From: a virus
Lineage: Duplodnaviria; Heunggongvirae; Uroviricota; Caudoviricetes
Strand: one strand, 5' to 3'
DNA: 64,000 bases
IMG/VR virus record: IMGVR_UViG_3300010882_000011
Location: 1-64,000 of that record
The position numbers were made by a program, and so were the translations under genes. The notes beneath the pieces were generated by a model. That model made no database searches. It was not told where the DNA came from and saw only the letters and a list, made by a program, of their open reading frames with translations. Shown here piece after piece: positions 176 to 28,083 of this stretch (the first letter of the stretch is position 1; each line of letters begins with the position of its first letter).

Positions 176-230
176 GCTGCGCTCGTATCGAGGAATTTCT
201 TAATTGCCTCTAGGCTTACGATATTTTCCA
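1..230 (-). CDS. Gly/Ser/Asp/Tyr-rich repeat protein, N-terminal part (partial; continues past the window start)
   Basis: ATG at 230-228 on the minus strand, then MENIVSLEAIKKFLDTSAASGSGYGSGSGSGYGSGDGDG... in an open frame through nt 1. Not in the ORF track because it runs off the edge. Confidence 0.4.
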
Positions 231-557
231 TACATCAATGCTGTTGATAGAATCAATAGCTTTCTGTGTGCAAGGTATAACCTCGATGGTTTGCGGTAAA
301 TAGATACCACACTCATCGGTTATAGTCATTGCGAACTTACAGGACTCTTTGTTATTCTTTCCAGTGATGCCCTCCTGCGCGAGTTGACTTAATGAAGCAG
401 CACCATACCAACTCCAAAGTCTTCTTGCATTTTGAAGGACACAATGTGTTCCTACTAGTTCTTTAACGTCTCCGAACCATACTCCTGCTGAATAGGTACG
501 AATAATACACTTTCTACCAATGAAGTGTCTTTCAACGAAATCTTGTTCTCTTTCCAT
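216..557 (-). CDS. hypothetical protein
   Basis: Track ORF of 113 aa, TAA stop, tightly packed with its neighbours. Confidence 0.5.
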   Translation of the reverse strand: MEREQDFVERHFIGRKCIIRTYSAGVWFGDVKELVGTHCVLQNARRLWSWYGAASLSQLAQEGITGKNNKESCKFAMTITDECGIYLPQTIEVIPCTQKAIDSINSIDVWKIS

Positions 558-562
558 AATAA

Positions 563-1141
563 TTACTTATGTTTATTTGCTAATGTTTTTATTTTATTTC
601 TATAATTTGGGTCTTCTGCATAAACTTTGGCAATGAAATCTAAATATTCATCTTCCGTTTTAATATTAGAAGCATATGTAGATTGCCAAAAGGCATAATC
701 CAATAAACTATAGTACCAACTTTCGTAGTATGCGAATCCGAACTGATCTCCATCCGCTGTATTAATCCTGGACTTAGCGAGACGCATTCCGAAGAGATTA
801 TTACTTTCTTTGCAGAGTTTTGATGTAAATGTAGCCGATTCAACTACTGCTTGGGCGTACACAATATGAGGAAACTTAACATTAAGTGCCTTAATTGCTT
901 CTTTAACTCCTTTTTCTGTTGGTCGTGATTTGTGTCCAGTTAGGACAACGTATTCCTTTTCTGTTATGATACATTCCTGTCCATAGATAGACTTACTAAT
1001 GTAGTATCCACCCAAGAAAGGAAAGATCGAAAAGATTAGAAATACTATTAGCCATCTAAATAGCATTTGATTAGGTAATAAGTTTATTTCCTTGATTACC
1101 ACATGGTTGATACTATCTAGAATCCTGTACCGTTTACCCAT
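563..1141 (-). CDS. membrane-anchored peptidoglycan hydrolase, glucosaminidase-domain (FlgJ-like N-acetylglucosaminidase)
   Basis: N-terminal TM segment; motif ...YAQAVVESATF...NNLFGMR matching the glucosaminidase (PF01832-type) signature AQAxxESGWG...NNLFGIK. Confidence 0.6.
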   Translation of the reverse strand: MGKRYRILDSINHVVIKEINLLPNQMLFRWLIVFLIFSIFPFLGGYYISKSIYGQECIITEKEYVVLTGHKSRPTEKGVKEAIKALNVKFPHIVYAQAVVESATFTSKLCKESNNLFGMRLAKSRINTADGDQFGFAYYESWYYSLLDYAFWQSTYASNIKTEDEYLDFIAKVYAEDPNYRNKIKTLANKHK

Positions 1142-2247
1142 TCTTTAATTGTTTTTGATTCTGGAGAAGTATTGACAAACAATTTCGCATAAATCTCCTT
1201 CTGAATAGTTTTGATTACCTGTTCAGGATTTTCAACTTGATCCAAACAACTGATAACGAATCTATTAGCACCTCTATAAGAGAAGTCCTGTCTATCTTTA
1301 TTTAAAGCGTAATTAAACAATTCCATACTAAGTGGAGCTGTTCTCAATTGCCCTTGATATAAGTTAGTAATGTTAGTTTCGTTCTCGTTATTAACCAAAT
1401 TTAGTTCCTGTTCGCCAGGTAATGGCCCAGCACCATGCCGAGTTAAATATGCTCGTAAACAGTACCATTTAGTGACACTGTTTCTGACCTCATCCTTTAG
1501 GTGTGCCAAAAGACCATGATTGGTAGTTTTACCATAAGTGACATAAGGATAAAATCCGTGTTCTCTATCTAGTAAAACTCCTTGATTGCCTTCAAAGATT
1601 AAGTGACCGTAAGGTATTTGATCGGAAGAAAATTGAATAGAATTCTGATAAAGATAATCACAGTCTTCTTCAAATGAAAATCTATCTAGTTCCAGTGTTG
1701 CTACTTCCTCCATAAATCTATCAACCAGATTAAGTTCCTTACATTTACTAAAATAGTAGTTGTAAATGTTTCTCAACTTCATCTTCCTGATTGTTGGAAA
1801 CTCTAAATCAGAGAGAATAAATGATATCAACTCATTACGCACTATGGTCTGCATATATCCAACCCCAACGGTGTTACCTTTGTTAGTTACCCTATCAAAA
1901 GCAATATCATATACAGTAGTAATGGGATTGTTATCATAAGTTCCAAATGAGGGCGTTACGGGCAACTTCTTCATTAGCAAAACATCTCTTTCATGACGAA
2001 AGTGAATTGGACTTAAAGTTACTCCTTTTCCCCATACAGACATAGCACCTCTTAGTGTTCCAGCACAGAAATGGTGAAATGTGTGAGTTATATCTCCAAG
2101 TTTTACGGTATGTCCTACCTGATGTCCTCCCGAATGTCTGATTACACAAACATCGGAGGGAATGTCATATTGAGAACAAAGATAATCGACAACAACACCT
2201 TTACCTTCATCTCCAAAGCCTAATCCTATTACCGAGTGTATATCCAT
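1117..2247 (-). CDS. purA: adenylosuccinate synthetase-like protein
   Basis: N-terminus GFGDEGKGVVVDYL ... HSGGHQVGHTV matches the PurA P-loop GDEGKGK and QGGHNAGHT motifs; 376 aa, divergent. Confidence 0.6.
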   Translation of the reverse strand: MDIHSVIGLGFGDEGKGVVVDYLCSQYDIPSDVCVIRHSGGHQVGHTVKLGDITHTFHHFCAGTLRGAMSVWGKGVTLSPIHFRHERDVLLMKKLPVTPSFGTYDNNPITTVYDIAFDRVTNKGNTVGVGYMQTIVRNELISFILSDLEFPTIRKMKLRNIYNYYFSKCKELNLVDRFMEEVATLELDRFSFEEDCDYLYQNSIQFSSDQIPYGHLIFEGNQGVLLDREHGFYPYVTYGKTTNHGLLAHLKDEVRNSVTKWYCLRAYLTRHGAGPLPGEQELNLVNNENETNITNLYQGQLRTAPLSMELFNYALNKDRQDFSYRGANRFVISCLDQVENPEQVIKTIQKEIYAKLFVNTSPESKTIKEWVNGTGF

Positions 2248-2248
2248 A

Positions 2249-3133
2249 TTATTTTATAAAGCTAACTGTGTGATAATCTTCAACTTTCGTAATGTCTTCT
2301 TTAACATAAGAATTATTCTTCAGAGTTTCTTTTACTTGTACTTCGCTGGCTCCTTGAGAAACAGCAACGGTTGTGGCAATAAGATCAACAATCTTAGAAG
2401 AATCAAGGATGAATAAATTCTCTCCTAATAAATCTTTCCATTTATCAGAAATATCTTCACCGTAAGTTCCATCAGAACAATGAATATGATAAACATTCCA
2501 CTTTTGCTGAGCTTCTTTTAAAAGTTGAACAGAAGCTTCATCTTCTGCTTCAGGATAACCAAGAATTTTCTTTAATTTAGCACTTTCGACACGTGGATGA
2601 TTCCATTCGTCTCCAATAGTAAATAAAAATCCTTTCTTACCTCTCTTTTCAAAAGCGTCAGTAACGGTATGTCTCGCAGCAAAAAGCCACGGCAACATGT
2701 AGGATTCCATTCTCTGTCCACCTCCCCCACCTTCTAACCAAATATTGGTTAAGTCGTTAGTCAATTCAATATCACCAGATTCAAATTGTCCAACTTGTAG
2801 TGGGGCACTATCATAATAATGGTCTCCAACAGCACAGAAACAAATAGTTACATCAGGCACTCCATTTTCAATTAATGCAATCATCAATTTAGTGAAGTGT
2901 TCCTGTGCTAGTTTATAAGGAATATTTCCCATTGATCCTGTTACATCAAATGCAACTATCACGGGAACTGTATTAGGATGAACATCAGAATCTCTAGCCT
3001 CTCTTACTTTTAGCTTGAAAGGATTCAAAGAGTCGTGAATTTCTCTTGCTTTAAAGACTTGTTCACGACTCATCGAACGATATTCTACTTCTCTACTCGC
3101 TGAACGAGTATAATCAGTAACTGTTCCTCCCAT
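2249..3133 (-). CDS. von Willebrand factor A (vWA)-like domain protein
   Basis: MIDAS-like DVTGSM motif near the start of a ~200-aa alpha/beta region; 294 aa. Confidence 0.45.
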   Translation of the reverse strand: MGGTVTDYTRSASREVEYRSMSREQVFKAREIHDSLNPFKLKVREARDSDVHPNTVPVIVAFDVTGSMGNIPYKLAQEHFTKLMIALIENGVPDVTICFCAVGDHYYDSAPLQVGQFESGDIELTNDLTNIWLEGGGGGQRMESYMLPWLFAARHTVTDAFEKRGKKGFLFTIGDEWNHPRVESAKLKKILGYPEAEDEASVQLLKEAQQKWNVYHIHCSDGTYGEDISDKWKDLLGENLFILDSSKIVDLIATTVAVSQGASEVQVKETLKNNSYVKEDITKVEDYHTVSFIK

Positions 3134-26953: not shown

Positions 26954-26977
26954 AAATTCAAATGTCTTAGTCGGCTC

Positions 26978-27016
26978 TGAAAAAAAGAGACCCTCCCAAT
27001 TAAGGGAAGGTCTCTT
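26978..27016 (-). terminator. rho-independent terminator of 27110..27634
   Basis: Stem gagacc(c)tccc/gggaaggtctc with a 6-nt loop; a T-run follows on the minus strand. Confidence 0.55.
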
Positions 27017-27109
27017 GACAAACTATCTTGGCTTTCCTTGGATTTCCCAAGCAATGGCGCCGATAAACCATACCAGTCCGATTGTAAGAAGCACGTAGAA
27101 CATAACTGG

Positions 27110-27634
27110 TTAATCTTTAACTTCCACGAAGATAGGAGTATTCCTCTTCTGAAGTATGTTCTCGTTATTCTCATTGACCTTACGCTGCCCATCTTTATCG
27201 AAGGAGACGTAGTCCATTGAGATTTGATCTTTGACCTTGATAGTCTTGTTCGCGAAGAACATGAATCTATCGTAGTCGTTCTCGAGGCTGTTAATCTCGA
27301 AATTTGTGGGATATGTGTCTCTGAACTCAATAGTATCCCAATTGACAGGAGTTCTGCGAAATGAACCAAGTGGAACATATTTCGCAGTTGTGCCATTGAT
27401 GACAACTTTGATTTTGTAGACATCTTTACCGTTAGCCATCGGAGAGTTGATGATATCTGCTTCATCTACTGTTGGAAATGTGATTACATCTCCATGTAGG
27501 AAGTTGAAACCATAACGGATGCCTGAAGTTTTCAATGCTTCAAGTCCTTCAACTTTAACTGCGTTAGCAGGAACGGTAGCTGTTCCCCAAATTGCTTTAT
27601 CAAAAGCTTTCATAAATGCCGATTCTTTAAACAC
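27110..27634 (-). CDS. hypothetical protein, paralog of 26363..26890
   Basis: Track ORF of 174 aa with TAA stop. The overlapping track ORF 26938..27465 in another frame looks like a low-complexity artefact. Confidence 0.5.
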   Translation of the reverse strand: MFKESAFMKAFDKAIWGTATVPANAVKVEGLEALKTSGIRYGFNFLHGDVITFPTVDEADIINSPMANGKDVYKIKVVINGTTAKYVPLGSFRRTPVNWDTIEFRDTYPTNFEINSLENDYDRFMFFANKTIKVKDQISMDYVSFDKDGQRKVNENNENILQKRNTPIFVEVKD

Positions 27635-27804
27635 GTTGACGGGTTCGTGCGCCGTAGTTTATAACCTCTTGGGCAGAGGATTGTTAATAAAGTGGCCAAT
27701 GTTGAACGTCTTAGCCAGTACGTCCTGAAGAGAATGCGAAGCATTCTCATCTGTTCCCTGCTGCAATTACGAGTTGCACGTGGACGCATCGCAGGGAATT
27801 AGAA

Positions 27805-28083
27805 TCAGTTTACATTTCTATTGGTAAGATAACAATCAGTTCTGAAATCGAACTTGAAAGTTTCGAGAGCCCAATGAAAGTTTTCAGAAGTATTAATCTT
27901 GCGAATGCCTTTATGGCCTTTGATACTCGCGTAAAACTTCTGGTAACCCGAAGCAGGTTCATCAACAAACACATGGATTTTGGTGTTCGATGGTTTCGGG
28001 TTCTTCGCTTTAGAATGAGCGATTAATACTCTACCAGTTGGTAGGTTGTGATGGATGATAGTTTCCATAACAATTTCCGTCAT
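27805..28083 (-). CDS. hypothetical protein
   Basis: Track ORF of 92 aa; ends in TGA followed two codons later by TAA. Confidence 0.45.
   Translation of the reverse strand: MTEIVMETIIHHNLPTGRVLIAHSKAKNPKPSNTKIHVFVDEPASGYQKFYASIKGHKGIRKINTSENFHWALETFKFDFRTDCYLTNRNVN

Follow-up and report, generated by a model that had tools for sequence, protein, structure and literature searches.

The stretch of DNA analysed here comprises 64,000 nucleotides (nt), positions 1 to 64,000 of the IMG/VR virus record IMGVR_UViG_3300010882_000011 (Caudoviricetes); it is called the window below and has a G+C content of 35.5%. Its genes fall into two sets that use the codon TGA differently. On the minus strand, between positions 216 and 25146, lies a block of auxiliary and functionally unassigned genes (according to Pfam and PHROG matches, the latter being few), referred to as block A, in which TGA does not occur in frame. 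Between 25.4 and 63.6 kb the genes are mainly those for packaging, virion and lysis, including the large terminase subunit (TerL), the portal protein, tail fibres and an endolysin, the exceptions being a RepL-like gene and an exonuclease gene; in these packaging, virion and lysis genes and a few others, TGA is used for about half of the Trp codons. A gene for a tRNA with the anticodon UCA, a candidate suppressor for these TGA codons, is located just outside the window within the continuation of block A.

For an overview the window was read in six frames with TAA and TAG as the only stops, and open reading frames (ORFs) of at least 100 codons were summed. The summed length rose from 16,455 to 27,623 codons when TGA was not treated as a stop, and the gain lay almost wholly to the right of 25 kb. 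Block A was represented by 45 tiling minus-strand ORFs of translation table 11 (TGA as stop), which cover 85% of the DNA of the block and contain 7,090 codons with 103 TGG and no in-frame TGA. The recoded set comprises 28 genes of translation table 4 (TGA as Trp) between 25.4 and 63.6 kb, with 11,529 codons that include 90 TGA and 79 TGG but neither TAA nor TAG in frame; this corresponds to one TGA per 128 codons, and 22 of the 28 genes have at least one. At this rate 59 TGA would be expected in the 7,532 codons of block A and a small standard-code part further right (the mini-block, see below), and the probability of finding none is 3e-26. The distribution of TGA and TGG over standard-code and recoded genes gave p = 1e-25 in a Fisher test. 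A preliminary description of this DNA, made from the letters and an ORF list, had proposed a TGA-free block, translatable by the standard code and with zero in-frame TGA in its ORFs of 709 and 573 amino acids (aa), next to blocks needing about one TGA per 130 codons, that is, two coding dialects in one genome; the counts bear this out.

The zero count is not circular, since a stop-to-stop reading with TAA and TAG barely lengthens the ORFs of block A, the table-4 ORFs being scarcely longer than the table-11 ORFs. When all possible read-throughs and upstream extensions in the block were counted, about 8 to 12 TGA were reached at most, whereas the rate of the neighbouring block would give 59, so that the table-4 recount suggested in the preliminary description found no comparable TGA frequency between 0.2 and 25 kb. 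The depletion is specific to the reading frame, since TGA is frequent in the other two frames of the same 45 ORFs (143 in frame +1 and 365 in frame +2). Nor is TGA just rare: the A-ending form makes up 64-81% of the purine-ending codon pairs of block A, a preference from which about 70 of the 103 Trp codons would be expected as TGA if this codon were permitted, whereas none is TGA; TGA is thus specifically avoided. The proposed comparison of codon usage also separates the blocks, with TGG:TGA ratios of 103:0 in block A and 79:90 in the recoded genes, and a G+C content at third codon positions (GC3) of 0.30 versus 0.21. The boundary between the codes is independent of strand, as had been claimed, because the minus-strand genes at 32802-34710 contain 6, 2 and 3 TGA.

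Block A continues beyond the window. In contig L001, which differs from the window by 69 substitutions in an overlap of 12,247 nt (99.4% identity), it extends at least 8.9 kb further to the left on the same strand and in the same code, with 14 further ORFs of 2,524 codons that contain no TGA and 37 TGG and end exclusively in TAA or TAG. The block without in-frame TGA is more than 34 kb long.

Regarding the meaning of in-frame TGA, all six TGAs of TerL fall into Trp columns of an alignment with homologues. In-frame TGA positions include 79, 144, 270 and 344 of TerL and 119 of the endolysin. Both TerL relatives with fetched loci (P0002 and P0103, on contigs L004 and L005) are themselves TGA-recoded and had been translated by code 4 in the database, so that their Trp residues are not independent evidence; codon interchange and solved structures were used instead. 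The three genomes compared have either TGA or TGG at six invariant Trp columns of TerL, the two codons replacing each other; at other columns Tyr codons alternate with TGA. One TGA of the M15 endolysin stands on the invariant Trp of the motif G-x-W-x-x-[FL]-K-D-x-x-H of four solved PDB peptidases. The number of Trp-equivalents per 1000 codons is 14.7 in the recoded genes (TGG plus TGA) and 14.5 in block A (TGG only). Comparison with homologues shows in-frame TGA to stand for Trp in the recoded genes; the table-4 ORFs and these Trp columns support the reading of TGA as an amino acid in the morphogenesis and lysis genes and in one exonuclease gene.

None of the four tRNAs of the window (ARAGORN; four matches to the Rfam tRNA model) reads TGA. 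The tRNA(UCA) gene was found about 7.0 kb to the left of window position 1, in contig L001, within the continuing standard-code block, as a member of a tRNA cluster (Asp, the anticodon-TCA tRNA, Pro, Leu and Arg); a gene that the late genes would require thus sits among genes not requiring it. Its acceptor pairs A1-U72 and G2-C71 to G5-C68 and its discriminator base G73 match the identity set of bacterial tRNA-Trp (PMC9976931), and the body has the 7/5 acceptor/T arrangement and the 4-bp D stem of bacterial tRNA-Trp. Owing to its length of 94 nt, ARAGORN labels it 'SeC'; a tRNA-Sec identity was rejected, as it is contradicted by the 7+5 bp acceptor/T domain and the 4-bp D stem. Bacterial tRNA-Sec has an 8/5 acceptor/T arrangement (13-bp domain) and a 6-bp D stem. 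These features support a Trp-type suppressor that would read the TGA of the late genes, and with TGA aligned to Trp and such a tRNA just outside the window, the suppressor dependence predicted for the late genes is supported. Neither a phage release factor 1 (RF1) nor a phage tryptophanyl-tRNA synthetase (TrpRS) was seen in the approximately 73 kb examined.

The variable region of the tRNA(UCA) contains an insertion of about 22 nt that forms a complete anticodon-type hairpin with a 5-bp stem and a 7-nt loop. The loop, G-U-CCA-A-A, presents the normal Trp anticodon CCA between U33-like and A37-like bases. Homologues with two hairpins were found on four contigs (Table 1). A search of IMG/VR with the first (UCA) hairpin alone gave four matches (two tRNAs with two hairpins, one ordinary 73-nt tRNA(UCA) and one sequence that is not a tRNA), and a scan of JGI metagenomes that required both hairpins gave three more two-hairpin tRNAs; the exact two-hairpin pattern had no match in IMG/VR or in GTDB genomes. 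Since the first hairpin was fixed in the search patterns, as was the second loop for the metagenome matches, the unbiased evidence for the CCA loop comes from the IMG/VR homologue only. In the five distinct sequences, which come from phage or metagenome contigs, all 26 pairs of the five-helix cloverleaf are standard, and two of the five pairs in the extra arm have changed in a compensatory manner. Of the carrier contigs, L168 is visibly TGA-recoded, and L170 has, in addition, an ordinary tRNA-Trp(CCA) whose loop is likewise CUCCAAA. Full-text literature searches returned no description of such a two-hairpin tRNA. The suppressor is tentatively, and with considerable doubt, proposed to be a new kind of tRNA, namely a tRNA(UCA) of Trp identity whose variable loop is replaced by a second anticodon-type stem-loop showing U-CCA-A; of the whole case, this item alone might be new. 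As a speculation, the extra arm could be a decoy identity element, or mimic, for the host TrpRS, which normally reads C34, and so enable charging despite the changed anticodon; equally speculative alternatives are two conformers or a relic. Other relatives carry ordinary 73-nt TCA tRNAs with a different body (L043 12806-12878, L054 13056-13128, L053 6312-6384 and L167 368-440), and one relative has a tRNA with the anticodon CTA, which indicates that the clade uses more than one kind of suppressor.

The split is found throughout the related phages. When IMG/VR was searched for relatives, the DUF8224 protein of block A led to at least 217 related stretches (37-62% identity) and the terminase to 284. 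Table 4 added a median of 0.017 to the ORF coverage of 73 early-type loci, each at least 12 kb long, whereas in TerL loci coverage increased under table 4 in 58 of 58 cases (median from 0.38 to 0.84); table 15 gave no gain in coverage on these loci. One IMG/VR contig displays both behaviours (L025 and L120). Conservation of the split in about 130 related loci points to selection rather than history, and the clade-wide absence of TGA despite A+T pressure indicates that selection has long acted against this codon in the non-structural block. This absence is the strongest argument, although an indirect one, that the non-structural genes are translated while UGA still terminates.

Megablast against GenBank phages gave no near-identical record for either half of the window. 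Exact-protein look-ups led to two MEGAHIT contigs, one of 170,034 bp (ena:ERZ27257304:k141_5678561) and one of 170,139 bp, which come from two ENA samples. Both represent the same sequence with differing start points, as would be the case for a genome of about 170 kb that is circular or has terminal redundancy. The window is probably part of such a crAss-like phage genome, about 170 kb in size and circular. Contig L174 corresponds to window positions 37366-58943 (21.6 kb) with 0 mismatches, and L002 differs from the window by 6 mismatches. One block A protein and one late-block protein occurred on six contigs each (50-200 kb long), and contig ERZ27257295:k141_1801195 contains both regions. The closest GenBank matches of TerL are two unannotated records of phages from the human gut (47% and 38% identity), followed in tblastn by the classified crAss-like phages cr1_1, cr55_1 and Azobacteroides phage (26-29% identity, E values down to 1e-53), which infect Bacteroides, Flavobacterium and Azobacteroides. 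Shine-Dalgarno sequences are not enriched at start codons (12-18% of genes versus a background of 10%); this result and the crAss-like terminase relatives of Bacteroidota both fit a standard-code host and suggest a divergent crAss-like phage of a Bacteroidota-type host. The TGA-free block is likewise indirect support for such a host code. The window showed no crAss-type major capsid protein, giant RNA polymerase or other signature gene; the probable place of these genes is the remaining 100 kb or so of the genome. Public gene calls use table 11, by which the late region, with its terminase, portal and fibre genes, is cut up into numerous short ORFs (L174); for the two relatives' contigs L004 and L005 the calls were made with code 4. 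Some relatives (P0033, P0038; L005 1-257 and 4562-6490) have a terminase of 1134 aa with Hom_end/intein domains, and LAGLIDADG and GIY-YIG genes adjoin the intein-type terminases; mobile elements are frequent in the clade.

Stops in block A are TAA and TAG, with an occasional TGA. Six ORFs end in TGA (at 17961, 19519, 21506, 22073, 24361 and 27805), and the next in-frame TAA or TAG follows after 63, 6, 33, 1, 10 and 2 codons, respectively. These ends are ambiguous, a stop and a Trp followed by a short tail being inseparable by sequence; the earlier statement that TGA serves as a stop there is plausible. The ORF at 17961-18164, which read-through would join to a further frame, seems a possible, and the best, candidate for a true in-frame TGA inside block A, and is the sole such place. 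The fetched loci contained no homologues of the six ORFs with which stop positions could be compared.

The second standard-code part, the mini-block at 26.2-28.1 kb, had been described as packed with ORFs. Coding scores leave two credible TGA-free genes, without Pfam match and unassigned in function, whereas the ORF at 26938-27465 was rejected as a gene because of its negative coding score and a terminator hairpin inside it. With 349 codons and about 2.7 TGA expected, the absence of TGA from the mini-block is not significant on its own. A strong terminator-like hairpin follows each of the two genes (27016-26985 and 26350-26318), and both genes look monocistronic. The RepL-like gene, which is recoded, occupies the divergent region between the two standard-code parts. 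A count of 16 terminator-like sites compares with 6.5 +/- 3.4 in shuffled sequences. Long G+C-rich hairpins with a T run follow single genes on the minus strand at 24931-24900 and 32796-32763 as well as at the two mini-block sites, the one at 32796-32763 standing between convergent genes. A scan for sigma-70 promoters gave background level and was uninformative.

The features of the window and of the tRNA-bearing contigs are listed in Table 1. Among the fibre-type genes are those for collagen-like and Ig-repeat proteins of 697, 525, 488, 585, 1138, 1720 and 610 aa. TGA makes up a smaller share of the Trp codons in the fibre genes (45262-63045; TGA:TGG 35:57, 38% TGA) than in the other recoded genes (55:22, 71%; p = 1.5e-5), and in the 1720-aa protein all six TGAs lie beyond codon 1056. 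The low share could reflect a recent exchange of fibre modules with standard-code phages.

Table 1. Features of the window and of related contigs, with the evidence for each (positions refer to the window unless a contig is named).
Position	Strand	Feature	Evidence or remark
563-1141	-	Glucosaminidase	Pfam/PHROG match
1117-2247	-	PurA-like adenylosuccinate synthetase, 376 aa	Pfam, E = 1.5e-36
3907-6036	-	DUF8224 protein, 709 aa, 0 TGA	Pfam/PHROG match
6036-6464	-	NMNAT-like gene (CTP_transf_like)	Pfam/PHROG match
6457-7080	-	CoaE-like kinase gene	Pfam/PHROG match
8162-8235	-	tRNA-Met(CAT)	ARAGORN; Rfam tRNA model
8422-10143	-	SPFH/Band-7 protein, 573 aa, 0 TGA	Pfam/PHROG match
10659-11339	-	Metallophosphoesterase	Pfam/PHROG match
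11847-12326	-	Acetyltransferase	Pfam/PHROG match
17361-17433	-	tRNA-Glu(TTC)	ARAGORN; Rfam tRNA model
17612-17685	-	tRNA-Glu(TTC)	ARAGORN; Rfam tRNA model
17961-18164	-	TGA-ended ORF	Read-through joins 17772-17945 in frame, 130 codons in total
19519-19944	-	TGA-ended ORF, 141 aa	In-frame TAA 6 codons on
22073-22267	-	TGA-ended ORF, 64 aa	Tandem TGA-TAA stop
23130-23203	-	tRNA-Pro(CGG)	ARAGORN; Rfam tRNA model
24361-24528	-	TGA-ended ORF, 55 aa	In-frame TAA 10 codons on
25409-25984	+	RepL-like winged-helix gene, recoded, 2 in-frame TGA	Pfam PF05732, E = 9e-10; coding score
26363-26890, 27110-27634	-	Mini-block, two credible TGA-free genes, function unassigned	Coding scores
within 28450-32578	+	304-aa protein, 5 TGA	Table-4 ORF
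within 28450-32578	+	1078-aa protein with C-terminal glucosaminidase-like region, 12 TGA, 0 TGG	Table-4 ORF
32802-35009	-	Lysis-type cassette, recoded	TGA counts, domain matches
in 32802-35009	-	Listeria-Bacteroides-repeat protein, 6 TGA	Pfam PF09479
33524-33919	-	M15 endolysin, 2 TGA	PHROG endolysin, E = 1e-33; PDB M15 peptidases
in 32802-35009	-	263-aa protein, 3 TGA	TGA count
in 32802-35009	-	99-aa hydrophobic protein, 0 TGA, holin-like	By eye from sequence
within 35316-39459	+	275-aa protein, 3 TGA	Table-4 ORF
within 35316-39459	+	Several small ORFs	
36143-37045	+	PD-(D/E)XK exonuclease, 1 TGA	Profile match
37509-37835	+	GroES-like gene, 0 TGA	Profile match
39459-41744	+	Large terminase subunit (TerL), 6 in-frame TGA	PHROG 6681, E = 3e-62; alignment
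42102-44321	+	Portal protein, 4 TGA, 0 TGG	PHROG 6547, E = 5e-45
45262-63587	+	Tail-fibre-type genes and small membrane protein	PHROG tail-fibre matches; Pfam He_PIG
L001 19221-19314	+ of L001 (minus strand of the window)	tRNA(UCA), 94 nt	Rfam tRNA model, 60.7 bits
L168 12376-12471		Two-hairpin tRNA homologue	
L170 4413-4507	-	Two-hairpin tRNA homologue	
L171 390-484	-	Two-hairpin tRNA homologue	
L172 343-436	-	Two-hairpin tRNA homologue	

For the PurA-like protein a PurZ identity (Z-genome, 2-aminoadenine) found no support: among solved structures its closest counterparts are ordinary PurA, and it has kept the GDEGKG motif. The DUF8224 and SPFH/Band-7 proteins are encoded by large conserved genes of unassigned role. 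A run of genes related to nicotinamide adenine dinucleotide (NAD) lies in the standard-code block, at 6036-7080 on the minus strand of the window and at 13273-18381 of L001, and comprises NMNAT-like, CoaE-like kinase, isochorismatase/nicotinamidase-like, NAPRTase, NAD synthase and phosphoribosyltransferase genes. It looks like a phage-borne NAD salvage route, perhaps directed against NAD-depleting defences.

Gut phages recoded in this manner were reportedly described by Ivanova et al. in 2014 and by Yutin et al. in 2021. For crAss-like, Lak, Jade, Sapphire, Agate ('gemstone') and other gut clades, recoding of late genes and phage suppressor tRNAs have been reported and a gating function proposed (10.1101/2021.08.26.457843). 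Standard-code hosts are predicted for phages of this kind. The present phage resembles these clades in the use of in-frame TGA as Trp in structural and lysis genes with other modules in the standard code, in its phage-encoded suppressor tRNA, in the small number of TGA-ended genes and in the proposed late or lytic gating; it differs in the extra anticodon-type arm of the suppressor and in that neither a phage RF1 nor a TrpRS is present in the part examined. The Zeta crAss-like phage Lera (PV725988, 179,624 bp) has two opposed gene blocks and a tRNA cluster with Sup-TCA among its members, and it uses TGA as Trp in 41 ORFs, most of them for structure and lysis (PMC12386605). Judged by that description, the two phages agree in size class (about 170-180 kb), in two large opposed blocks with the tRNA cluster in the non-structural one, in TGA as Trp mostly in structural and lysis genes and TerL, and in the homing endonucleases or inteins of relatives; in Lera the RNA polymerase and helicase genes are recoded, whereas here those genes lie outside the window. 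The same block-wise structure, again compared by description, is seen in the phage genomes found by the annotation tool and survey Mgcod, which consist of blocks of standard code or of opal or amber reassignment (10.1101/2022.06.29.495998). In contrast, phages of code-4 and code-25 hosts (Mycoplasmatota, Absconditabacteria) have TGA in nearly all genes, whereas here it is missing from a block more than 34 kb long, and TGA aligns with Trp and not, as in code-25 phages, with Gly; on these grounds (0 of 45 block A ORFs with TGA) a phage adapted to such a host was rejected. The two-code layout is real in this genome, every sequence-level hallmark looked for having been found, but it is already described for gut phages, and both the arrangement and the gating hypothesis have been published (10.1101/2021.08.26.457843; 10.1101/2022.06.29.495998; PMC12386605). 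Experimental proof of phage recoding concerns TAG-to-Gln only (PMC9523058).

It is considered probable that the window represents a crAss-like genome of about 170 kb with two codes, in which a suppressor tRNA(UCA) gates the packaging, virion and lysis genes and for which we infer the order of expression. The genes of block A would be written for translation by an unmodified standard-code host. Early in infection the host release factor 2 would halt at UGA, and full-length products would come from standard-code genes only. These genes (NAD and nucleotide-metabolism genes, SPFH, acetyltransferase and tRNAs) and the suppressor tRNA would be expressed first. The phage tRNA(UCA), once it has built up and carries Trp, presumably attached by the host TrpRS, would compete with release factor 2, and UGA would be decoded as Trp; after this switch, the terminase, portal, fibres and endolysin could be completed. 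Recoding would then act as a gate and not be merely tolerated.

Several points weigh against this interpretation. It was the 99.4%-identical contig, and not the window itself, that contained the tRNA(UCA), and this tRNA is non-canonical, its long extra arm and G73 being features that seryl-tRNA synthetase (SerRS) also uses (PMC7609411). Six of the 28 genes in the recoded region have no TGA, and the TGA-free pair at 26363-27634 lies between recoded genes. The RepL-like, PD-(D/E)XK exonuclease and 275-aa genes are recoded and yet not obviously late. The label 'early' for block A derives from gene content and orientation, the replication genes lying outside the window, and the role of recoding as a timer is putative.

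A serious rival reading, possible though rather unlikely, holds that the split is real and recoding is no timer. TGA would then have drifted under A+T pressure into genes that are translated after the suppressor, as a consequence of its presence, or it would serve another purpose, such as hiding late genes from the host or from competing elements, restricting the exchange of genes, or harming translation in the host by read-through. The total clade-wide absence of TGA from block A already implies two translation states, and the recoded genes are structural and lysis genes, as in the published gating model (10.1101/2021.08.26.457843); on the other hand, TGA accounts for 55 of the 77 Trp codons of the non-fibre late genes (0.71), which is within the A-ending share of the other codon pairs (0.71-0.85), as neutral drift predicts, and the fibre genes lag behind (0.38), as expected of recently exchanged modules. 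In addition, some non-late genes are recoded, and suppressor tRNAs have been discussed for relatives without recoding, with anti-host roles proposed (PMC12386605).

The view that code 4 applies throughout, due to a code-4 host or a constitutive suppressor, with block A free of TGA by history (e.g., as a recent module from a standard-code phage) or by chance, is strongly disfavoured. The difference in GC3 could hint at different histories of the blocks, but a zero count is extremely improbable at the late-gene rate, the A-ending preference of block A should have let TGA accumulate, and the 73 related loci are TGA-free although their DUF8224 homologues are only 37-62% identical. Furthermore, about 90% of the genes of phages of code-25 hosts contain in-frame TGA (10.1101/2021.08.26.457843), compared with 0 of the 45 in block A.

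Another residue as the meaning of TGA, be it Gly (code 25), selenocysteine or Ser, is very unlikely. The swap of TGA and TGG at invariant Trp columns, the TGA at the invariant Trp of M15 peptidases and a Trp content of both blocks that is equal only if TGA is Trp oppose all three. Ser could be argued from the variable arm, which is long, and from G73, both of which are SerRS identity features (PMC7609411), and selenocysteine from the ARAGORN label; the tRNA(UCA) has, however, the acceptor/T and D-stem architecture of a different tRNA type, and 90 sites could hardly each bear a selenocysteine insertion sequence (SECIS) element. A chimeric assembly of different phages, for which only the GC3 difference speaks, is practically negligible in view of the six contigs bearing each block's protein and the one holding both regions, the two approximately 170 kb assemblies from two samples that start at different points of one sequence, the 0 and 6 mismatches to L174 and L002, and the IMG/VR relative with both patterns on one contig.

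A two-code phage genome with a suppressor-gated late set being the preferred reading, the window provides a statistically strong and clean example of block-wise opal recoding in a lineage that has no close phage relatives in GenBank (terminase identity at most 47%). For annotation it means that public table-11 calls shatter the late genes of this genome. Should the two-armed tRNA be functional, it would be relevant to the question of how a host synthetase can be brought by a phage to charge a tRNA whose anticodon is altered. With two sharply separated gene sets and the suppressor in the presumed early one, the genome may serve as a test bed for the gating hypothesis, and the clade-wide absence of TGA from early-type genes in spite of A+T pressure is indirect evidence for a phase of infection in which UGA is a stop.

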